A stretch of 64,000 bases of DNA from an uncultured Clostridium sp. (GTDB taxonomy: Bacteria; Bacillota; Clostridia; Lachnospirales; Lachnospiraceae): NCBI GenBank assembly GCA_902496665.1, contig CABVBU010000006.1:3210-67209 (forward strand), written 5' to 3'. Made by a program: the position numbers and the translations under genes. Of this stretch, positions 14,946-63,544 are shown in pieces; the stretch's first letter is position 1; every line of letters begins with the position of its first letter. The notes beneath the pieces are model-generated. The model ran no database searches, had not been told where the DNA came from, and saw nothing but the letters and a program-made list of their open reading frames with translations.

Positions 14946-16097
14946 TTACTTTAACAGTGCGCCGGAGATAACCATTCTCTGAACTTCACTTGTTCCTTCG
15001 TAGATCTCGGTGATCTTAGCATCACGCATCATACGCTCTACGTCGTACTCTCTGATGTAACCATAACCACCATGGAGCTGAACAGCCTTTGTTGTTACTT
15101 CCATAGCAACCTCTGCTGCATACAGTTTAGCCATAGCTGCCTCTACAGAATAGGACTTCTGAGTAGCCTTAGCCATTGCTGCACGGTAAACCATCATCTG
15201 AGCAGCTTTTACCTTTGTTGCCATATCAGCAAGCTGGAACTGTGTGTTCTGGAACTGACCGATTGTGCGGCCAAACTGCTTTCTCTCTTTTACGTAAGCG
15301 ATTGTTCTGTCAAGAGCGCCCTCTGCAAGACCAAGAGCCTGAGCAGCGATACCGATACGTCCGCCGTCAAGTGTATGCATAGCGATCTTGAAGCCCTCAC
15401 CCTTCTTACCTAAAAGGTTGTCCTTCGGGATGCGGCAGTCTGTGAAAATAAGTTCATATGTTGCAGATCCACGGATACCCATCTTCTTCTCTTTTGTACC
15501 AAAAGTGAAGCCCGGTGTTCCTTTCTCTACGATAAACGCGGAGATCTCTTTCTGCATTTTGCCACGTTTCTCAACTGTGCCTGTAACAGCGATAACGATG
15601 TATGTATCAGCATACTTACCGTTCGTGATGAAGCACTTGGAACCGTTTAATACCCACTCGTCGCCGTCTAAAACAGCTTTTGTCTGCTGACCCTGAGCAT
15701 CTGTACCAGCGCCCGGCTCAGTTAAACCGAATGCACCTAACTTCTCGCCCTTAGCAAGCGGAACCAGGAATTTCTGCTTCTGCTCTTCTGTACCAAATGT
15801 CTGGATCGGATCCATGCAAAGGGATGTATGAGCGGAAACGATAACGCCTGTAGTACCGCAAACTTTGGAAAGCTCCTCAACGCACATAGCGTAAGTAAGC
15901 GGATCACAGCCCTGTCCACCGTACTCCTTCGGTACCGGAATACCAAGGAAACCGTTTTTAGCCATCTTCTCTACGGTTTCTACCGGGAATCTCTCTTCCT
16001 CGTCAACCTCCTGAGCAAGGGGTTTGACTTCCTTCTCGGCGAAATCATGGAACAGTGTTCTCGCCATCTCATGCTCTTTACCTAATGTAAAATCCAT
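14946..16097 (-). CDS. bcd: Butyryl-CoA dehydrogenase (acyl-CoA dehydrogenase, Bcd)
   Basis: 383-aa ACAD with the C-terminal motif [13 protein letters not shown]. It lies next to etfBA. Confidence 0.95.
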
Positions 16098-16248
16098 GTT
16101 TTTAGTTCCTCCTTGTGAATTGTATCATGTATAACATGGGGAAATGTGGATGCTTCATTTTCCCGATGTACCTAATTAAATATCAGAAGCCTGGCCATCT
16201 GTGCGTCTTCACACAGTCTGTCCGTCATCTGACCATGCCTTTTAATTT

Positions 16249-55108: not shown

Positions 55109-56362
55109 TTAAGCAATAATCTTGTAAATTCCAATAAAAGCGAATACTGCCAACACCGCAAGCGCGATGAAGGATACCGCGAACAGCTCGACGAACAGTC
55201 TGTTCTGCGGGAATTTTTCATCTGCGTCCTCCTGCTGTGCAACACCGGCCATGATAAGGGCACCGGTGGTGGAGATCGGTGTGAAACCGGAAACTGTTCC
55301 GCCGATAACGATGACGGAGACAAGCTCTAACGCAGTCACGTTGCCGATGCTTGCCGCAAGCCCGCTTGCTGTCGGAATCAGGGTCGGGAATACGACGCCG
55401 AGACCTGAGCTGAAGAAGGACATGAGTCCTGCTGCGATAGCCATGATCGTTGCGGCTGTCTTGGGACCCATAACGGATTCCAGGCCGTCGACCATGATGT
55501 CGATACCACCGGAGAGGGAGATGACATTCATTAAGATGCCGACACCGAGAACCATGATGATCACGTTCCACGGGATCATCTTGAACGCAGTCTTTTCATC
55601 GCCGCATCCGAGTACGATCAGAACGGAACCGACGGTAAATCCTGTGAGGCCGACATTCCATGAAAAGAACAGGGCACCGATGGCGAGAGCTGCAAGCCCC
55701 GCAAGGGAGAGCCACTGATTTTTGCTGAATTTCGGAAGAACATCCTCATGGTTGGTGTGCGGAGCGACCTTCCATCCTTTGTAATAAATGTAGACGAGAA
55801 CAGCCACGACAAGAGCAGTCACAGTGAGGCACATCATGATCGGAACGGTATTTCCGGTAAGTCCCTGTGCTTCCATAAGCTCACGGACAACGGCACTCTC
55901 CGGAGTCAGCGGGCTCATACGTCCGGACATAACGCCGAGATCACCGATGATCGCCGTCATGATCGGGTTCACACCTGCGGATATCGCGACCGGGATCGCG
56001 ATGACCGGAACGATCGCGAGAGACGGGATGGCTCCCGGTCCCACCGCACAGATCAGGAATCCGAGCAGGTACATGACGAACGGGATCAGCGCCTTGTGCG
56101 GTCCGACGAGAGCTACCATCTTCTTTGCCAGAAGTTCCAGAGTTCCGTTTTCATTGATGATAGCAAAGAGATATGTGATGCCGATCATCTGCATGCAGAG
56201 GGAGGAACTGAATCCCTTGATAATATCATTTGCCTTGATCCCATAGACGAGTCCGAGGATCATGGAGAAGCCGATACATAAAATTCCGACGTTCGCTTTG
56301 CGGACGAAGCCGATAACGATGGCAGCTAAAAGGGCGATAAGTGAAATAAGACCAAGATTCAT
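55109..56362 (-). CDS. Ion-transporter-superfamily permease (CitMHS/DASS/MatC-like); probable organic-anion carrier
   Basis: 417-aa polytopic ORF with an internal two-fold-repeat feel and an AGGAGG RBS. It begins 9 nt after the lactonase stop. Confidence 0.65.
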   Translation of the reverse strand: MNLGLISLIALLAAIVIGFVRKANVGILCIGFSMILGLVYGIKANDIIKGFSSSLCMQMIGITYLFAIINENGTLELLAKKMVALVGPHKALIPFVMYLLGFLICAVGPGAIPSLAIVPVIAIPVAISAGVNPIMTAIIGDLGVMSGRMSPLTPESAVVRELMEAQGLTGNTVPIMMCLTVTALVVAVLVYIYYKGWKVAPHTNHEDVLPKFSKNQWLSLAGLAALAIGALFFSWNVGLTGFTVGSVLIVLGCGDEKTAFKMIPWNVIIMVLGVGILMNVISLSGGIDIMVDGLESVMGPKTAATIMAIAAGLMSFFSSGLGVVFPTLIPTASGLAASIGNVTALELVSVIVIGGTVSGFTPISTTGALIMAGVAQQEDADEKFPQNRLFVELFAVSFIALAVLAVFAFIGIYKIIA

Positions 56363-56371
56363 ATGTACCTC

Positions 56372-57421
56372 CTAGCGGAATGTGATGCAGACCGGGCTCT
56401 CCGCTGCGATCACGCGACCGGTGTATTCCATGCGGCCCTGTTCAGAGTCAAGTTTCATCTCTATGATCGTGTCACTGTCCTCGTTTGCCATGTAAAAACG
56501 GCTGTAATCCGGATTGAATGTGATGAAACGCGGTGTGAGACCCATTGCCGGGTAGTAGCCGAGTTCCTTCATGTAACCGGTCTCCTGGTTGATTCGGTAG
56601 AGGACGATGGACTCGTGGATGCGGTTGGAACCAATGAGGATCTCGCCGTTCTTATCAAGGAGAGACGCACTTGCCTGTCCCTCGCCGGTGTATGTTTCCG
56701 GAAGTGTCGGCAGATTCTGGCGCGGAAGAAGCTTTCCGTTCACGTCATCGAAGCCGAAATATGTCATCTTGTTGCCTTTTTCGTTGATCAGGTACGCGTA
56801 ATGGTTATTCGGATGGATCGCGATATGGCGCGGCTCATCGTACTCTCTGGAACGGAAGCAGTCTGTCTCGGTGAGTGTGCCGTTTTCGGCGTCAAAGCGG
56901 TATACAAGGACCTGTCCGTAACCCTGAATTCTTCCCTGTGTCACAACGAAGAGGAATGTCTTTGTATGATCCCAGATGCACTGGTGCGCGAAGGAGACGG
57001 TTCCCTCTTTTCTGCCTGGGAGATGTGTCTCGGAGACGATATCACCGAGACTGCCGTCTGCGTTTCTCTTAATTACATAGACAGCGCCGCCCTGAAGAAC
57101 AGCAACGACTAAATATTTGTTTGTCTTGTCAGCTGTAATATATACCGGGTTCTTTCCACCGATATCGATCATATTTAACGGAGATAAGGTTCCGTCCTCA
57201 AGGATCTTGTAGCTGGAGACCTTTGTCTTGTCTCCGTGAACGGAATAAAGGAATTTTCCCTCGTTGTCCATTGTCTGGTAGGACGGGTTCTCTTCCTCAG
57301 TCTTTAAACACTGGATCAGATCCCAGTCGCCGGTCTTTTCATCGATCTTAAAAACCTTTAAGCCTTTTCCCCTTGCATTTCTCTCTTTTGTTGTTCTGCA
57401 GCCTACATAAGCGTAGCTCAT
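56372..57421 (-). CDS. 7-bladed beta-propeller lactonase family protein (PF10282-like)
   Basis: 349 aa from MSYAYVGCRTT (GAGGAGG RBS), with the motif PRHIAIHPNNHYAYLINE typical of the family. The track ORF extends 27 codons upstream from a TTG. Confidence 0.8.
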   Translation of the reverse strand: MSYAYVGCRTTKERNARGKGLKVFKIDEKTGDWDLIQCLKTEEENPSYQTMDNEGKFLYSVHGDKTKVSSYKILEDGTLSPLNMIDIGGKNPVYITADKTNKYLVVAVLQGGAVYVIKRNADGSLGDIVSETHLPGRKEGTVSFAHQCIWDHTKTFLFVVTQGRIQGYGQVLVYRFDAENGTLTETDCFRSREYDEPRHIAIHPNNHYAYLINEKGNKMTYFGFDDVNGKLLPRQNLPTLPETYTGEGQASASLLDKNGEILIGSNRIHESIVLYRINQETGYMKELGYYPAMGLTPRFITFNPDYSRFYMANEDSDTIIEMKLDSEQGRMEYTGRVIAAESPVCITFR

Positions 57422-57646
57422 TTCCTTTTCCTCCTCAAATGAATATAAGATCATATAAAAGATTCCCACTTGATCACTTCGCTTCGAAGCGATAAAAGCC
57501 AACTGCTCCGCGCCTTCGGCACTCCCGCAGTTGCCGCCGATATTCGTAATACGGGCTATCGCCCTCCTTACTCATACCGGCTTGGTAGTCAGATGTCTTC
57601 CCATCCTTGCGTGCAAGCACGCAGTCTGGTCAGCCGTCTGACTACA
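57422..57646 (-). promoter_or_regulatory. GC-rich multi-hairpin 5' leader; candidate riboswitch or attenuator of unknown class
   Basis: On the minus strand: GUAGUCAGA...UCUGACUAC encloses GCGUGC-UU-GCACGC; GCCGGUAU...AUAUCGGC encloses GGGC-GAUA-GCCC; CAACUGC...GCAGUUG encloses GUGCC-GAA-GGCGC; and AUCGCUUCG-AAG-CGAAGUGAU forms a further hairpin. Confidence 0.4.
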
Positions 57647-57674
57647 CTTTTATGATAAATTATTAACATGTCAA
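57647..57674 (-). promoter_or_regulatory. Candidate promoter of the lactonase operon
   Basis: On the minus strand, TTGACA (57669-57674), about 16 nt of spacer, then TAAAAG (57647-57652). The -10 is weak. Confidence 0.35.
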
Positions 57675-57891: not shown

Positions 57892-58620
57892 ATGAAAAAA
57901 ACAGTTCTCGTCACTGGCTCGTCCCGCGGGATCGGGCGGGCGGTGGCTTTAAAATTTGCTTCCTGCGGATACCATGTCGTGATCAACTGTGCCAGAAGCA
58001 CAGATCGGTTGGAAGAAGTGAAAAAAGAAGTTGAGGCGCTGGGCGCAGAGTGCCTGGCGGTACAGGCGGATGTCGGATGTTCGAATGACTGCCAGCGGCT
58101 TTTTAAGGAAATCGAATCCCGCTTCGGCCATGTGGATGTCCTCGTAAACAACGCCGGGATCTCCATCATCGGCCTCTTACAGGACTTAAGCTTTGAGGAT
58201 TGGAACCGGATCCTCTCCGCGAACCTGTCCTCCGTCTTCCACTGCGCGAAGCTCGCGATCCCAGGCATGATCCACTGTCACAGCGGAAAGATCATCAATA
58301 TCTCCTCCGTCTGGGGCGTCTGCGGTGCCTCCTGCGAGGCAGCCTACTCCGCCACAAAAGGCGGCGTCAACGGTCTCACCATGGCCCTCGCCAAGGAACT
58401 CGCCCCCTCCGGCATTCAGGTGAACGCCATCGCCTGCGGAGCCATTGATACGGAGATGAATGGATTTTTATCTGAGGAGGAGCATGAGATGCTCTTGGAC
58501 GAGATTCCCGCCGGCCGCATGGGAAAGCCGGAGGAAGTCGCAGACCTCGTCATGAAACTCGTAGAAGCACCGGACTACTTGACCGGTCAGATCATAAAAA
58601 TGGATGGTGGCTGGATCTGA
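57892..58620 (+). CDS. SDR family oxidoreductase (FabG-like)
   Basis: TGSSRGIG cofactor motif and the catalytic YSATKGG; 242 aa. Confidence 0.88.
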   Translation: MKKTVLVTGSSRGIGRAVALKFASCGYHVVINCARSTDRLEEVKKEVEALGAECLAVQADVGCSNDCQRLFKEIESRFGHVDVLVNNAGISIIGLLQDLSFEDWNRILSANLSSVFHCAKLAIPGMIHCHSGKIINISSVWGVCGASCEAAYSATKGGVNGLTMALAKELAPSGIQVNAIACGAIDTEMNGFLSEEEHEMLLDEIPAGRMGKPEEVADLVMKLVEAPDYLTGQIIKMDGGWI

Positions 58621-58643: not shown

Positions 58644-59468
58644 TTAAAAGCGCAGACAATCCTGCAGATAACGCGCATGCGCCTGAAGCGCAGCAATAAT
58701 CTCCTGTCTTCTCTTCTTTATCATCGGACTCATTCCCGTCAGGCTCACACTTCCAAACAATTCATTATGATATCGATTAAAGATCGGCACTGCCAGCGCT
58801 GATACTCCGGTAAAAAGAGCGTCGTATTCTTCAGAATATCCATTTTTACGGATCCGGTATAACTCCACGTCAAAATTCTTCTGCCTATCCTCGAAAGACT
58901 TCTGAAACGGTGTCATCGGCATTCTTTCCAGATATTCCGCTCTTTCTTTTTCCGATAAATATGCCAACAGAATCTTTCCGCTTGCAGAATCATACAGAGA
59001 TATCTGTGGTGACACACGCTGGACAATAAAAGGGCAGTTTGTCGGTTCAGTTGTGTCAATCACTCTCAATTGCTTTTCGTCCATTGCAAACATGGTTCCG
59101 TTTAACTGGAACTGATTACTTAACGCCAGCAGTCTGTCATGGCCCCGGTCAATGCACATGCTCTGGCGCGTCCCGGCAGCGAGACAGGCTTTGTTAAACA
59201 GCGCCGCCCCCAGCATGTACTGCCCATTTCCATTCTGGCTGATATAGCCATTCTGGTAAAGCGTACTCAGGATCCCATGGACTGTACCTTTGTTCAAATT
59301 GAGCTGATTGCTGATCTGCCCCAGCGTCAGGGCAGAATTTGTCATCGTAAAGCAGTTCAGTATGTTGATCGCACGCTGAACCGACTGGATCTGACGTTCC
59401 GTAGCCTTTGTATTTTTTTCCGTAACATTTTTCGATTCATCCAATGGCAAAATACATCCCCCTGTCAA
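58644..59468 (-). CDS. IclR family transcriptional regulator
   Basis: N-terminal wHTH (SVQRAINILNCF...LTLGQISNQLNLNKGTVHGIL) and an IclR effector domain. The start is uncertain: TTG at 59468, or TTG at about 59450. Confidence 0.82.
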   Translation of the reverse strand: MTGGCILPLDESKNVTEKNTKATERQIQSVQRAINILNCFTMTNSALTLGQISNQLNLNKGTVHGILSTLYQNGYISQNGNGQYMLGAALFNKACLAAGTRQSMCIDRGHDRLLALSNQFQLNGTMFAMDEKQLRVIDTTEPTNCPFIVQRVSPQISLYDSASGKILLAYLSEKERAEYLERMPMTPFQKSFEDRQKNFDVELYRIRKNGYSEEYDALFTGVSALAVPIFNRYHNELFGSVSLTGMSPMIKKRRQEIIAALQAHARYLQDCLRF

Positions 59469-59617
59469 ATAGAGTTTGATATTGTCAAAAGCACGTTGGT
59501 AATTATTGTCATTTTAACATTCCTATGCTATATTGTCAACACAGTTACAAAAGTTCAATTTTTTCGGCCGAATAAATAGAACATTCATATCGCTCAACTA
59601 AAAAAGGAGGAAAACGC

Positions 59618-60859
59618 ATGGTGAATTCCAATAATGTCACTCGTAAATTTACTATGAAAGAAAAACTTGCTTCCCTTGGTCCCGGCTTCGTGATCGTGGG
59701 ATCATTCATCGGTCCCGGAACCGTAACAAGCTGTACGCTGGCAGGTGCAACTTACGGTTTCACACTTTTCTGGTGTGTTGTCTTTTCCGTTATCGCAGTT
59801 ATCGTCATGCAGGGCATGGCAGCAAGGATCGGTATCATCACTCAGGAAGGTCTTGCAGAAAACATGAAGCATGACTTTGCTGACCGTCCGCTTCTTCGAA
59901 ACATTTTATGTGGTCTTGTCATCATTGCGATCACCATCGGCGGACTCGCATATATGGGCGGCGACCTTACCGGAACGGCAATGGGAGCCAGTGCACTGAC
60001 CGGTGTTCCGACAAGAATCATGGCTCCGGTCTTAGGAGTTATCGTTCTGATCGTTCTCCTCTTTGTCGGTGATGCCGTGAAATATCTGGAAAAGCTTTTA
60101 AGTGTATGTGTCACTTTAATGGCAATCGTCTTTCTTATGACAATGCTCATTGTTCGTCCTGATTTCGGCGAACTGCTCCGCGGCTGCATCCCGACAGTCC
60201 CGAAGGGCGGACTGATGACATGTCTTTCCCTCATTGGAACGACCGTTGTTCCGTACAACATGTTCCTGCATGCTGCAAGCGCCCAAAGAACATGGCATAC
60301 AAAGGAAGAACTTCCGCTCTGTATGTTTGGCACAACCGTACCGATGATCATCGGCGGTGTTATCACAGGTTCCATTATGATCACATCAGCAGTGGTTATG
60401 CGCGGCATGAGCGTTAACAACGCAATGGATATGGCTGTACAGCTTGAAGGTACACTCGGACGTTTCGCTCAGCCTTTCATGGCATTAGGACTTCTCTCCG
60501 CAGGTATTTCCAGCGCTCTCTGCTCTCCGATCAGTGTCTCTTACGTATTAGCCGGACTTTTTGACTGGAAGACAGATGGCTCCGATAAACGTTTCTTAGG
60601 AACAAGCGCAATCATTCTGATCGTCGGAATTATTATTTCCGCAATTGGCACCAACCCGTTAGCACTGATCATGACTGCTCAGGCTGTAAATGGAATCGCA
60701 CTCCCGGTCGTTGTAGGTGTTACTCTTTACCTTGCAAGCCGTCAGAGAATTATGGGTGAATATAAGAACTCCATGCTCCAAAACATTATCGGCCTGATGA
60801 TCTTTGCGATCTCACTGATCCTTGGTATTTCAAGTTTTATCGGTGTTTTTGCCGGTTAA
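59618..60859 (+). CDS. Nramp-family-fold transporter lacking the canonical metal-binding residues
   Basis: 413-aa ORF that can be aligned by eye with MntH. Its TM1 motif is FIGPGTVTS where MntH has YIDPGNFAT, and its TM6 motif is GTTVVPYNMFLHA where MntH has GATIMPHVIYLHS. AAGGAGG RBS. Confidence 0.85.
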   Translation: MVNSNNVTRKFTMKEKLASLGPGFVIVGSFIGPGTVTSCTLAGATYGFTLFWCVVFSVIAVIVMQGMAARIGIITQEGLAENMKHDFADRPLLRNILCGLVIIAITIGGLAYMGGDLTGTAMGASALTGVPTRIMAPVLGVIVLIVLLFVGDAVKYLEKLLSVCVTLMAIVFLMTMLIVRPDFGELLRGCIPTVPKGGLMTCLSLIGTTVVPYNMFLHAASAQRTWHTKEELPLCMFGTTVPMIIGGVITGSIMITSAVVMRGMSVNNAMDMAVQLEGTLGRFAQPFMALGLLSAGISSALCSPISVSYVLAGLFDWKTDGSDKRFLGTSAIILIVGIIISAIGTNPLALIMTAQAVNGIALPVVVGVTLYLASRQRIMGEYKNSMLQNIIGLMIFAISLILGISSFIGVFAG

Positions 60860-60898
60860 AGCATTAACACATACATACACATGAGAAGAGGTGAACAT

Positions 60899-61837
60899 AT
60901 GCTGGAGGAAGTTGCGAGAGATGCCTGGGAGTATGGACGAAAATTCCTGCTGCAGGGAAAGGTCGCAGATTACATACCTGAGCTTGGGAAAGCAAATCCA
61001 GTACATTTTGGACTATGTATTAAAACAGAAGATGGCCGTCATATCGAATTTGGTGATTCCGAATGCCGCTTTACTATACAGAGTATCTGTAAAATCGTTT
61101 CCCTCGCAGCAGCACTGCAATATATCGGTGAAGAAAAGGTCTTTAAGAATGTGATGATGGAACCATCCGGGGATGCGTTCAATTCAATCTTAAAGCTTGA
61201 CACAGCGAGCAACCGCCCGTTCAATCCGATGATCAACGCTGGAGCCATTGAAGTTGTAAGCCTTCTGGCCGGGCGCTTCTCTTTCGAACAGATGCTGGAA
61301 TTTATCCGCACCTTATGTAATGACAATGAGATCATTCTGGATGAGTCCGTTTATCGCTCTGAAAAGGCAACCGGTGACAGAAACCGGGCGATCGGATATC
61401 TGTTAAAGAGCAAGGGTGTGTTAAAGGGGGATGTTCTCCAGACGCTGGATCTCTACTTTAAGCTCTGTTCCTTGAGTGTAAATGCAAGATCATTATCAGA
61501 ATTAGGCCTTCTTCTTGCAAACGGAGGTATTTCCACAACTACCGGAAAACGCCTTCTCGACAAAAAAGTCGTCCGAACATTAAAAACCCTTATGCTGACC
61601 TGCGGCATGTACGACCGTTCCGGGGAATTTGCCGTCCGCGTGGGGATCCCCTCAAAAAGCGGTGTCGGAGGCGGGATCCTCTCCTGTGTGGGAGGCCGCA
61701 TGGGAATTGGAATCTACGGACCGGCACTCGACGAAAAAGGCAACAGCATCGGTGGCGGATATACACTGGAATATCTTTCTGAACATTTGAACCTTCACAT
61801 CCTCGATTCCGCCGATACAAAAGAGACACAAAATTAA
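60899..61837 (+). CDS. glsA: Glutaminase A
   Basis: Serine-dependent glutaminase motifs (QSICKI S-x-x-K; PSKSGVGGG). Start at MLEEVARD (AGAGG RBS). Confidence 0.92.
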   Translation: MLEEVARDAWEYGRKFLLQGKVADYIPELGKANPVHFGLCIKTEDGRHIEFGDSECRFTIQSICKIVSLAAALQYIGEEKVFKNVMMEPSGDAFNSILKLDTASNRPFNPMINAGAIEVVSLLAGRFSFEQMLEFIRTLCNDNEIILDESVYRSEKATGDRNRAIGYLLKSKGVLKGDVLQTLDLYFKLCSLSVNARSLSELGLLLANGGISTTTGKRLLDKKVVRTLKTLMLTCGMYDRSGEFAVRVGIPSKSGVGGGILSCVGGRMGIGIYGPALDEKGNSIGGGYTLEYLSEHLNLHILDSADTKETQN

Positions 61838-61950: not shown

Positions 61951-62943
61951 ATGAAAAACAGCAAACCAACCATTTATGATCCGGCGTTTTTACCAAACAA
62001 CATTTACAGCGGAGTTCCGTCCTGGCTGAATCTGCCGGTTCTCGAAAATGAAAGTGAACTTTCCTCCATGGATGCCGTTGTCACTGGTGTACCGTGGGAA
62101 GGAGGATGCACGATCGGCGGATACTCTTCCTGTACAGAAGGACCGAAAGCAATCCGTTCTGTATCGATCCGCTATACCGGCTATCTTCCGGACTTTGACC
62201 TTGATGCATTCGATTACTTAAAAGTCGGTGATTTCGGCGATGTCGCATGCAGAAACGGTGATTATCCGCTCACCTTTGCAGCGATCAGAGAAAGAATCGG
62301 CCAGATTGAAGAGGCAGGCGCTCTCCCGATCACATTCGGCGGCGATCATGGAATTGCATATCCGATCATCAGTGAGATTGCAAAACGTCATCCAAAGAGA
62401 GTCGGCGTTCTCCATATTGATGCCCATCTTGACAATTACTCCATCTTTGGTGATGATGAATATTCCCGTTGCTCTCCGTTCTATCAGCTTTACAATGATC
62501 CGAATATGGATTCCACAAAAATCGTACACATCGGTATCCGCGGACCGCGTAACCATAAAGAGGAATTTGCAAACGCGAAAAAATACGGTGCGACTGTGAT
62601 TCTCGCAAGAGAGATCAAAGAAAACGGCTGGAAAGAATCCATCCGAAAAGCAATTGAGATCGCCTCAAAAGATACCGATCTGATGTACATCACCGTTTGT
62701 TCAGACTGCCTTGACGCAGCGAGCATGCCGCAGGGGCCGCAGGATATGTGTGGCTTAACATCTTATGAATTATGCATGATGCTTCACGAAGCTGGACTCG
62801 CAGGTGCAAAGGGCATGGATTTCGTGGAGATCTATCCAGATACTCTGAGCTACCAGACCGCTGCACACGATGCATGCTGGGCAACCCTCTATTATCTGAA
62901 TGGACTTGCAGAGAGAAAGAAAAACGAGAGCGAACAGAAATAG
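61951..62943 (+). CDS. Ureohydrolase family protein (agmatinase/guanidino-acid hydrolase/formimidoylglutamase-like)
   Basis: Mn-ligand motifs GGDHGI, DAHLD and SDCLD are present; 330 aa. Confidence 0.88.
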   Translation: MKNSKPTIYDPAFLPNNIYSGVPSWLNLPVLENESELSSMDAVVTGVPWEGGCTIGGYSSCTEGPKAIRSVSIRYTGYLPDFDLDAFDYLKVGDFGDVACRNGDYPLTFAAIRERIGQIEEAGALPITFGGDHGIAYPIISEIAKRHPKRVGVLHIDAHLDNYSIFGDDEYSRCSPFYQLYNDPNMDSTKIVHIGIRGPRNHKEEFANAKKYGATVILAREIKENGWKESIRKAIEIASKDTDLMYITVCSDCLDAASMPQGPQDMCGLTSYELCMMLHEAGLAGAKGMDFVEIYPDTLSYQTAAHDACWATLYYLNGLAERKKNESEQK

Positions 62944-63073: not shown

Positions 63074-63544
63074 ATGAAGACAATTTACGATGTACCGATC
63101 ATTTTGAGAAGAGAAATTGAAGCGCTTATGGTCAAGCCATTTATCGATGCGTTTGAAAAGGAACTCGGACATGAAAAAACATATGAGATCGTAAAAAAAG
63201 TCATCTACGACATCGCCTTTAAAGAAGGTCAGGAATATGCGGAGCTCTTCGGAAGAAATGACCTGCAGGCGATCCGTATGCAGATGGAACCCTGGTCATC
63301 GAACGGTGCCTTAAACCTTGCATGGAGTGGAGACGGAGAAAAACATCTTTGTGAAGATGTTCTGGAATGTCAGTATGTTGCCATGTATGAACGTATCGGT
63401 ATGAAGGATCTCGGAGCTGTCTTATCCTGCGGACGCGATGAACCGTTTTATAAAGGCATGAATTCCAAGATCAAAATGACAAGAACAAGAACTCTGATGC
63501 AGGACGGTAAATGCTGTGATTTTGTATTTGATCTGGAGGAATAG
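63074..63544 (+). CDS. L-2-amino-thiazoline-4-carboxylate (ATC) hydrolase-like family protein (PF14196-like), function unknown
   Basis: 156-aa ORF with an AAGGAGG RBS and a C-terminal Cys-rich motif (GKCCDFVF), as I recall for this family. Confidence 0.55.
   Translation: MKTIYDVPIILRREIEALMVKPFIDAFEKELGHEKTYEIVKKVIYDIAFKEGQEYAELFGRNDLQAIRMQMEPWSSNGALNLAWSGDGEKHLCEDVLECQYVAMYERIGMKDLGAVLSCGRDEPFYKGMNSKIKMTRTRTLMQDGKCCDFVFDLEE

Follow-up and report, generated by a model that had tools for sequence, protein, structure and literature searches.

The 64,000-nucleotide (nt) stretch of DNA described here, referred to as the window, belongs to an uncultured Clostridium sp. of the Lachnospiraceae (assembly GCA_902496665.1, contig CABVBU010000006.1, positions 3,210 to 67,209). 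It carries a gene for a transporter that is predicted to have the Nramp fold and that lacks the residues of the canonical Nramp/MntH metal site. This gene is transcribed divergently from an IclR-family regulator gene and is followed on the same strand by genes for a glutaminase, an arginase-family ureohydrolase, and an ATC_hydrolase-family protein. The features of the locus are listed below in coordinates of the window, with transmembrane (TM) helices numbered TM1 to TM11.

58644..59468, minus strand: divergent IclR-family transcriptional regulator (Pfam HTH_IclR and IclR_C)
59480..59539, no strand: intergenic control region and candidate operator, with three exact direct copies of TATTGTCA at 59480, 59504, and 59531
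59618..60859, plus strand: Nramp-related transporter of 413 amino acids (aa) with 11 predicted TM helices and a predicted LeuT fold, without the canonical metal ligands
59705..59731, plus strand: unwound TM1 motif F30-I-G32-P-G-T35-V-T-S38, which replaces x-x-D-P-G-N-x-x-x (alignments and AlphaFold2 model)
59954..59965, plus strand: TM3 motif M113-G-G-D116, a subclade signature (specificity-position analysis and motif tables)
60236..60274, plus strand: unwound TM6 motif G207-T-T-V-V211-P-Y213-N-M-F-L-H-A219, which replaces G-A-x-x-M-P-H (alignments and AlphaFold2 model)
60899..61837, plus strand: glutaminase A (glsA), a lineage-specific operon insertion that appears dispensable in some strains (Pfam Glutaminase, 376.7 bits)
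61951..62943, plus strand: arginase-family ureohydrolase, the invariant partner in the subclade (Pfam Arginase, 193.3 bits; below all NCBIfam equivalog cut-offs)
63074..63544, plus strand: ATC_hydrolase-family protein (PF14196, 102.4 bits), the last gene of the operon

The transporter, hereafter the query, matches the Pfam Nramp model PF01566 from end to end (264.9 bits, E 1.4e-78). It misses the NCBIfam cut-offs for MntH (NF001923, 165.6 vs 430 bits) and for nramp (TIGR01197, 107.8 vs 272.5 bits). The only NCBIfam model that it passes is the partial-length NF037982 (65.6 vs 50), which accounts for the name given to its relatives, 'Nramp family divalent metal transporter'. At least 8,000 clusters (90% identity) of the family carry either this name or 'manganese transport protein', although none of the canonical ligands is present in them. 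Residues were placed by HMMER pairwise profile alignments to the solved structures BfraNramp (10ky), DraNramp (8e5s), and EleNRMT (7qia). In TM1, s-f-i-G32-P-G-T35-v-t-s of the query aligns with g-f-i-D-P-G-N-w-a-s of BfraNramp, and G32-P-G-T35 falls on y-m-D-P-G-N-f-a-t of DraNramp and g-n-D-A-G-G-i-s-t of EleNRMT. In TM6, l-i-g-t-t-v-V211-P-Y213-n-m-f-l-h-a aligns with v-l-g-a-v-v-M-P-H-n-l-f-l-h-s of BfraNramp, while V211-P-Y213 falls on i-i-g-a-t-v-M-P-H-v-i-y-l-h-s of DraNramp and m-i-g-t-t-i-A-P-W-m-m-f-f of EleNRMT. A multiple alignment that includes canonical Nramp gives the same register. On these alignments the replacements of Asp by Gly, Asn by Thr, Met by Val, and His by Tyr are real and unshifted and are not an alignment artefact. 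Two canonical features are kept: D116 occupies the site of the TM3 Glu, and Q355 that of the TM10 Gln. The canonical TM3 Glu contacts Mn2+ in BfraNramp (PMC12873925).

An AlphaFold2 model of the transporter was built on a 99-sequence alignment (pLDDT 94.5, pTM 0.92) and has 11 TM helices. TM1 is broken at residues 31-32 and TM6 at residues 210-211, exactly on the two motifs. Foldseek gives TM-scores of 0.79-0.85 across Nramp structures, with 0.83-0.85 against DraNramp, EleNRMT, and BfraNramp, and ranks amino-acid transporters of the APC superfamily next (0.6-0.67). The modelled fold is that of Nramp/LeuT, with discontinuous TM1 and TM6. Amino-acid transporters of the APC/LeuT fold bind carboxylate groups through a G-x-G sequence in an unwound TM1. 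The likeness of the query's TM1 to this motif is a lead for an organic substrate, not a test of one. An earlier note on this DNA, made by eye from the sequence, had described the open reading frame (ORF), the glsA gene 39 nt downstream, and the divergent IclR gene, had recognized an Nramp homologue in which the TM1 Asp and Asn and the TM6 Met and His are replaced, and had proposed a LeuT-like fold. All of this is borne out by the alignments and the model, and the Asp, Asn, and Met ligands are not found at shifted positions.

Among the studied transporters, the canonical Nramp/MntH proteins (DraNramp 8e5s, BfraNramp 10ky, ScaDMT, and DMT1) share with the query the 11-TM LeuT fold (TM-scores 0.79-0.84), an acidic TM3 residue, and the TM10 Gln, but the Asp, Asn, Met, and His of their metal site are all replaced in it. 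The NRMT/NrmT Mg2+ transporters, represented by EleNRMT (7qia, TM-score 0.85), are Nramp-related and like the query are without DPGN and MPH motifs, and the start of TM6 in EleNRMT (I-G-T-T-I-A-P-W) resembles that of the query. In contrast to the query, which has Gly (i-G-P-G-T), NRMT keeps the TM1 Asp (n-D-A-G-G). The NrmT clade is defined by regulation through a magnesium (M-box) riboswitch (PMC4072509), and upstream of the transporter gene in the window and in eight related loci no Rfam match to the M-box was found. A further non-canonical Nramp-related type is present on Rhizobium and Brucella plasmids (L100 4923-6236 and L101 4974-6386, annotated 'divalent metal cation transporter'). These proteins have A-A-D-D-D-P-S-G and G-T-T-I-S-P-Y motifs and are taken as NRMT-like for their D-D-D-P-S-G. 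Their neighbours are uninformative, those around the Rhizobium gene being copper-resistance and heavy-metal genes.

Searched against 1.84 billion cluster representatives (50% identity), the query matched 5,509 clusters at E <= 1e-3, 359 of them at E <= 1e-30. Conservation was assessed on the query and 127 full-length representatives from the best 150 matches (128 sequences). The 127 representatives have the TM1 consensus A-A-F-I-G-P-G-T-V-T-T and the TM6 consensus L-I-G-T-T-V-V-P-Y-N-L-F-L-H. Gly32 and Gly34 are found in 125 of the 128 sequences, Thr35 in 122, Pro212 in 121, and Tyr213 in 122. The query has both family motifs and also the residues G43, G119, G207, G291, S299, Q355, and P363, which are invariant in the 99- and 128-sequence alignments. 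Since the substitutions are kept throughout the family, the ligand-less state is, as judged from the alignments, under purifying selection and is not a product of decay or chance. The query is therefore not the singular repurposed homologue that the earlier note took it for. It is a member of a large and conserved Nramp-related family, and the loss of the motifs in such proteins had already been noted (PMC12873925; PMC9606685), so that the existence of ligand-less Nramp relatives is not in itself new. PF01566 holds an 'outgroup' and NRMT besides the true SLC11 carriers (PMC9606685). A preprint of January 2026 by Ray, Berry & Gaudet describes paraphyletic 'Nramp-related' groups without DPGN and MPH (PMC12873925). 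It names an 'NRMT-like' group and a 'G-motif 3' group that includes B. subtilis YcsG ('MntG'), and calls the others 'entirely uncharacterized' (PMC12873925). The query's family is probably one of the latter. All trees were made by neighbor joining (NJ), and monophyly of the whole family against outgroups is unstable in them (7 of 100 bootstraps).

The gene neighbourhoods of the main family were examined by scanning one genome per species with the family TM6 pattern, which gave 80 loci whose transporters are 37-42% identical to the query; this sample is mostly Flavobacteriaceae. Neighbouring ORFs were called and clustered, and recurrent clusters were annotated. Of 79 loci, 71 have genes for LamB_YcsF, CT_C_D, and CT_A_B proteins directly downstream of the transporter gene on the same strand. 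These proteins are PxpA, PxpB, and PxpC of the prokaryotic 5-oxoprolinase. The pxpABC-linked loci come from Bacteroidota, Clostridia, Halanaerobiales, Kangiellaceae, Marinicella, Sphingomonadaceae, Latescibacterota, and Balneolaceae, so that Bacillota and Proteobacteria are covered, and a family member from Bacillaceae is likewise pxpABC-linked. A tblastn search of plasmids found homologues on haloarchaeal megaplasmids that are 34-40% identical to the query. In a trimmed alignment the haloarchaeal homologue is 63% identical to one bacterial pxp-linked member, and its TM1, TM3, and TM8 motif residues are of the bacterial pxp-linked type, with Gly for Pro in TM6. Its gene lies upstream of hydantoinase/oxoprolinase A and B genes (HyuAB) and overlaps their start. 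The best NCBIfam match of this HyuAB is caprolactamase, below the cut-off. PxpABC and HyuAB are non-homologous, are both plausibly lactam hydrolases, and have partner transporters with the same motif residues. Because two non-homologous enzymes fill the same place, the constant is likely to be a lactam substrate and not the metal centre of one enzyme, an argument that assumes that HyuAB acts on a lactam. The evidence that points to lactam or 5-oxoproline transport by the main family is this adjacency to pxpABC and to haloarchaeal HyuAB.

The pxpABC linkage in 71 of 79 loci led to an initial assumption that the family is that of B. subtilis YcsG (PxpG/'MntG'), C. glutamicum PxpT, and C. difficile KipT. 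The YcsG group shares with the query the Pfam Nramp fold, a Gly at the TM1 Asp position (s-a-i-G-P-G-f vs s-f-i-G-P-G-t), a Tyr at the TM6 His position, amide-hydrolysing enzymes next door and, in B. subtilis, an IclR-type regulator, KipR. However, YcsG is only 23% identical to the query (BLASTP, 62 bits; 20.3% over a trimmed alignment), which is no closer than the canonical Nramps, and its identity to a pxp-linked protein from the family of the query is 24%. Its TM1 motif is A-I-G-P-G-F and its TM6 motif is G-G-T-V-G-G-Y, against G-T-T-V-V-P-Y-N in the query, and its partner is PxpABC whereas that of the query is a ureohydrolase. A Foldseek match to the YcsG model 9a52 (TM-score 0.78, 21% identity) had already hinted at this distance. 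The identity of the two families was therefore rejected. Published YcsG, PxpT, and KipT members are 46-50% identical to one another (PMC13274462). The B. subtilis-type sequence used in these comparisons was recovered from metagenome contig Ga0153917_1000137 through a published ycsG reverse primer. The operon found there (L107, 4717-10061) has the order pxpA-ycsG-ycsI-kipI-kipA-kipR, and its YcsI matches Pfam D-Glu_cyclase. The N- and C-terminal peptides of YcsG deduced from primers were found in none of the 270-389 retrieved proteins.

The function of the YcsG group is disputed. C. glutamicum loses growth on 5-oxoproline when pxpT is deleted and regains it on complementation (PMC13274462), and KipOTIA supports growth on 5-oxoproline (bioRxiv 10.1101/2024.05.01.592088). 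B. pertussis instead uses a TRAP system, the binding proteins of which were crystallized with 5-oxoproline (PMC13274462). On the other side, over-expression of ycsG raised cellular Mn in B. subtilis, and the gene was renamed mntG (PMC10448178), so that 5-oxoproline (PMC13274462) stands against Mn2+ (PMC10448178). Two distant Gly-motif groups are thus each coupled to 5-oxoprolinase genes, and the experimental data come from the YcsG group only and conflict.

The closest relatives of the query differ from the majority of their own family in their partner enzyme. The gene contexts of this subclade were examined in 12 lineages, which include Acidaminococcus (68% identical to the query), Treponema vincentii (69%), Fournierella (77%), a JGI genome (72%), a 53% identical relative, Phascolarctobacterium (68%), two gut lineages (74% and 77%), an 87% identical relative, and the window's own species. 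In 11 of the 12, an arginase-family gene (327-330 aa) accompanies the transporter gene and a divergent IclR gene. The exception is Bhargavaea (Bacillales, 42% identical), in which the order is arginase-family gene, YheO-type regulator gene, and transporter gene. An arginase-family ureohydrolase gene therefore adjoins the transporter gene in 12 of 12 lineages, and in none of them is LamB_YcsF, CT_C_D, CT_A_B, or HyuAB adjacent to it. Five aligned partner ureohydrolases are 59-86% identical to that of the window, the Bhargavaea enzyme is 40% identical, and all fall into one orthogroup. When plasmids were searched by tblastn with the ureohydrolase, for loci with another transporter, no match exceeded 36% identity. 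NJ bootstraps recover the core subclade as monophyletic 99 times in 100, while the wider subclade with Bhargavaea and P0125 is unstable (49-61 of 100).

The nearest solved relatives of the ureohydrolase are 'agmatinase 2' (9fek and 7esr), guanidinopropionase (3nip), guanidinobutyrase (3nio), and metformin hydrolase, at about 30-36% identity. Its Cys250 (62698-62700) stands at the first Asp of the D-x-D metal motif, with V-C-S-D-C-L-D in place of F-D-V-D-C-L-D of 9fek. C-[SA]-D-x-L-D is present in all eight aligned partners, including that of Bhargavaea, where the family has D-x-D-x-x-D. The Cys variant hints at a change in the metal centre or in the metal that it binds.

The change of partner is accompanied by changes in the transporter. 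The pxpABC/HyuAB-linked majority is 37-42% identical to the query over the full length, shares its TM1 and TM6 motifs, and has the invariant Q355. It has E113 and N116 where the query has M113 and D116 (canonical Nramps have D/E there), and it shows 44 further fixed differences. These 46 subclade-specific differences are clustered in TM1, TM3, TM6, TM8, and TM10, the pocket helices of the LeuT fold. They include A28A29 to GS (TM1), E66 to G (TM2), and N109 to G, E113 to M, and N116 to D (TM3), with others in TM6b and TM10. In TM8, I-T-A..A-A-A becomes [VL]-C-[TS]..[GS]-V-S, with T302 replaced by C and A306-A308 by [GS]VS. Within the pxp-linked group the replaced residues have 80-100% conservation, most of them above 90%. 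The resulting signature is [GA]-S before F-I-G-P-G-T together with a hydrophobic residue 113 and Asp 116. It reads G28-S29, M113, and D116 in the query and A-S, I113, and D116 in Bhargavaea, and it is also found in the P0012-P0121 members. Hydrophobic 113 with Asp 116 occurs in only three or four of the 127 representative clusters.

Further genes recur around the module. About half of the lineages have a PF14196 gene (L089-91, L095, L096, and L110), so that this partner is frequent, not universal. Those of L089 (10310-10780), L095 (8420-8890), and L096 (2511-3008) stand in the equivalent position and are 19-21% identical to the window copy. These three are alike and share conserved Cys residues, so that the slot is kept although the window gene is not orthologous to them. 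M20 amidohydrolases of two kinds accompany the module, one of the carbamoylase/allantoate-amidohydrolase type and one of a TIGR01891/DoeB2-like type. In contigs of the same species, convergent tsaD/tsaE follow the operon.

The IclR protein is likely a substrate-responsive regulator of the operon. IclR and YheO/PAS regulators typically bind small organic ligands. A KipR-like identity was considered for it and rejected, since it is only 22% identical to the B. subtilis-type KipR, a generic level. In the intergenic region, the TATTGTCA copies located by a repeat search have spacings of 24 and 27 nt and overlap the -35 regions of two sigma-70-like promoters placed back to back. The promoter-like sites are 59506-59534 on the plus strand (TTGTCA-17-TATATT) and 59539-59511 on the minus strand (TTGACA-17-TAAAAT). 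The repeats are a putative operator, to judge from their placement. Riboswitches for Mn, Mg, Ni/Co, guanidine, or glutamine were looked for in the window and in eight related loci, and none was found. A search of RNA-seq runs for signs of co-transcription matched only wastewater runs, with about 25% of the words shared.

With modest confidence, we lean toward the transporter being a secondary-active LeuT-fold importer of a small organic nitrogen compound for the ureohydrolase, and not a carrier of Mn2+/Fe2+. The metal site would have been replaced by a Gly-Pro-Gly-Thr / Thr-Thr-Val-Val-Pro-Tyr-Asn pocket, and the substrate would be a guanidino- or amidino-type acid, possibly cyclic and related to 5-oxoproline. 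The nearest solved relatives of the ureohydrolase make a guanidino- or amidino-type substrate likely. The ureohydrolase, presumably co-transcribed, would hydrolyse the imported compound, and the divergent IclR protein would sense the compound or a product. The cluster of many relatives also encodes an ATC-hydrolase-like protein and an M20 amidohydrolase. We infer the direction of transport, the coupling ion, and the chemical class of the substrate. One speculation, prompted by ATC-hydrolase-, carbamoylase-, DoeB-, and EutA-like neighbours, is that the substrate could be a carboxylate with a cyclic amidine or guanidine group, structurally akin to 5-oxoproline. Partly by analogy, an organic substrate appears best supported by the tracking of lactam hydrolases, the remodelling of the pocket with the change of partner, the types of regulator, the absence of riboswitches, and the genetics of YcsG/PxpT. 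Of the earlier note's interpretation, the doubt about Mn/Fe transport stands, as the comparative genomics favours a small organic nitrogen compound over Mn/Fe. Its alternative of a guanidino substrate fits the invariant arginase-family partner, while its glutaminase motive and its view of the protein as singular do not hold.

A broader proposal can be put forward only tentatively. It is that the whole F-I-G-P-G-T/T-T-V-V-P-Y-N branch consists of ion-coupled importers of small nitrogenous acids with amide, amidine, or guanidine groups, many of them cyclic and mostly 5-oxoproline, and that the subclade with its Cys-variant ureohydrolase and IclR regulator forms an undescribed pathway of guanidino or cyclic-amidino uptake and hydrolysis in gut and oral anaerobes. 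Literature searches on Nramp with ureohydrolase or guanidino, and on PF14196/ATC hydrolase, found no description of the module. As far as the literature was searched, the pxpABC/HyuAB linkage of the group, the ureohydrolase-linked subclade with its TM3 switch, and the co-evolving Cys-variant ureohydrolase are undescribed.

Several points weigh against the import of an organic compound. In the subclade, D116 is acidic at the canonical TM3 Glu position and the TM10 Gln (Q355) is kept, as aligned. The geometry of the pocket is that suggested by the alignment, and organic-substrate import by any member of the family is itself deduced from sequence. At 30-36% identity, the solved homologues of the ureohydrolase are too distant to name a compound. 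The rise of Mn on over-expression concerns a Gly-motif protein, YcsG (PMC10448178). The partner enzymes, moreover, are metalloenzymes, so that gene adjacency fits a supply of cofactor as well.

This last point is the basis of the main rival, which we consider unlikely. It holds that the transporter imports a divalent metal (Mn2+, Ni2+, or another) for the binuclear ureohydrolase. Arginase-family enzymes are binuclear metalloenzymes. The solved relatives of this one include 'agmatinase 2' (9fek, 7esr/7oi1), of which the 7esr/7oi1 protein is, we assume, the Ni-dependent guanidine hydrolase GdmH. They also include metformin hydrolase, which is Ni-dependent (PMC11271267; PMC10927577). On this rival, a metal site would have been re-invented from D116, Q355, the oxygens of Thr, Tyr, and Asn, and extra Met and Cys residues, and the Cys-variant enzyme would use an unusual metal brought in by a dedicated importer. 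The conserved Cys of the partner at a metal-ligand Asp would fit such a scheme, as would D116 on the canonical TM3 Glu, Q355 on the TM10 Gln, and the Cys and Met residues gained in the subclade (C53, C164, C235, C302, M113, and M215). Altered motifs do not preclude metal transport by Nramp relatives, as EleNRMT shows (PMC8806188), and the effect of YcsG on cellular Mn (PMC10448178) points the same way. However, residues at all four canonical side-chain positions are weak or non-coordinating, and the query has Gly for the TM1 Asp, a residue that even NRMT and NRAT retain. Unlike D116, the gained residues M113, M215, and C302 are not kept across the wider subclade, being I113, L215, and A302 in Bhargavaea and, for the last two, L215 and I302 in P0121. 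Main-family members with the same TM1, TM3, and TM8 motifs pair with the non-homologous PxpABC and HyuAB, and neither a metal-sensing regulator nor a metal riboswitch was found in any locus examined. CGXII medium contains ample Mn. The pxpT deletion phenotype arose in this medium, although PMC13274462 does not exclude a metal role.

Import of 5-oxoproline (pyroglutamate), as proposed for the bulk of the family, is improbable for the query itself. The ureohydrolase would in this case adjoin the transporter through a shared glutamate-producing or nitrogen-scavenging regulon. The FIGPGT and TTVVPYN motifs are indeed common to the query and the pxpABC-linked majority, glutamate is the product of both glsA and 5-oxoprolinase, and one subclade contig (L096) has a LamB_YcsF gene about 6 kb away. 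Yet pxpABC or HyuAB is adjacent in 0 of 12 subclade lineages, the conserved pocket-helix residues of the pxp-linked group are replaced, and the rarity of the signature, in three or four of 127 representative clusters, suggests a distinct specificity.

The least supported reading, and a very improbable one, is that the transporter imports glutamine for the adjacent glutaminase in the manner of the B. subtilis glsA-glnT pair, for which the same-strand glsA 39 nt downstream with no terminator-like site between and the transporter-glsA-ureohydrolase order in the 87% identical relative can be cited, but against which stand the absence of glsA from most of the subclade, its deletion in strains of the same species, the conserved partnership with the ureohydrolase, and the tracking of lactam hydrolases, not glutaminases, by the family. 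The glsA gene itself is well defined, passing TIGR03814 (375.3 bits, cut-off 255.4), with a ribosome-binding site before its ATG at 60899 and the start of the longest ORF at 60881. It lies between the transporter and ureohydrolase genes only in the window's species (the window and L004-L006) and in the 87% relative (L111). It is absent from nine other lineages (53-77% identity) and from Bhargavaea (L089-L096, L108-L110, and L009), that is, from 10 of 12. In three contigs of the same species (L001-L003, 11282-11470), about 785 bp of it are deleted and a remnant of 62-70 aa is left, with the transporter 100% identical and the ureohydrolase intact. From this comparison glsA is a recent and dispensable addition, and the transporter is the first gene of a ureohydrolase operon that gained it. 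Because glsA is restricted to one lineage and deleted in strains, the operon is a ureohydrolase operon and not the glutaminase operon that the earlier note had described. The B. subtilis GlnT-GlsA pair likewise has a transporter gene beside glsA, but GlnT presumably belongs to another transporter family, and the adjacency in the window is confined to one small lineage.

If organic nitrogen compounds are carried, inferences on metal homeostasis that were drawn from annotation would be wrong for many Bacteroidota, Bacillota, Proteobacteria, and haloarchaea. It would then also be shown how LeuT-fold carriers of metals and of organic solutes are interconverted by a handful of changes in TM1, TM3, and TM6. 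The broader proposal, if right, would document that a metal-ion carrier scaffold was turned to organic substrates. The family would offer a tractable system for the disputed Gly-motif relatives and would bear on the dispute between 5-oxoproline (PMC13274462) and Mn (PMC10448178) as the substrate of YcsG. In gut and oral anaerobes, among them Acidaminococcus, Phascolarctobacterium, Treponema vincentii, and Fournierella, the module of IclR regulator, transporter, and Cys-variant ureohydrolase points to an unrecognised degradative route for a metabolite of guanidino type, the products of which would presumably be urea and an amine or amino acid.

Other features of the window lie apart from the operon. 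An SDR gene (57892-58620, plus strand) between the IclR gene and a strain-variable region matches the equivalog model of YmfI, the elongation factor P 5-aminopentanone reductase (257.5 vs 238 bits). The variable region lies upstream of this SDR gene (about 55109-57502 in the window, 1-7900 in L001-L003). In the window and L004-L006 it encodes an aconitase, two LysR proteins, an RraA-like protein, a CitMHS/MatC carrier, and a lactonase. L001-L003 have instead genes for a phage-type integrase, SLFN/AlbA-HATPase proteins, an NlpC/P60 protein, and a pyridine-nucleotide oxidoreductase. Two RNAs score above the Rfam gathering threshold, namely a caiA RNA at 16095-16172 (minus strand, 96.1 bits) and a Clostridiales-1 RNA at 57493-57652 (minus strand, 114.6 bits), the latter directly upstream of the lactonase-family gene at 56372-57502 (minus strand).

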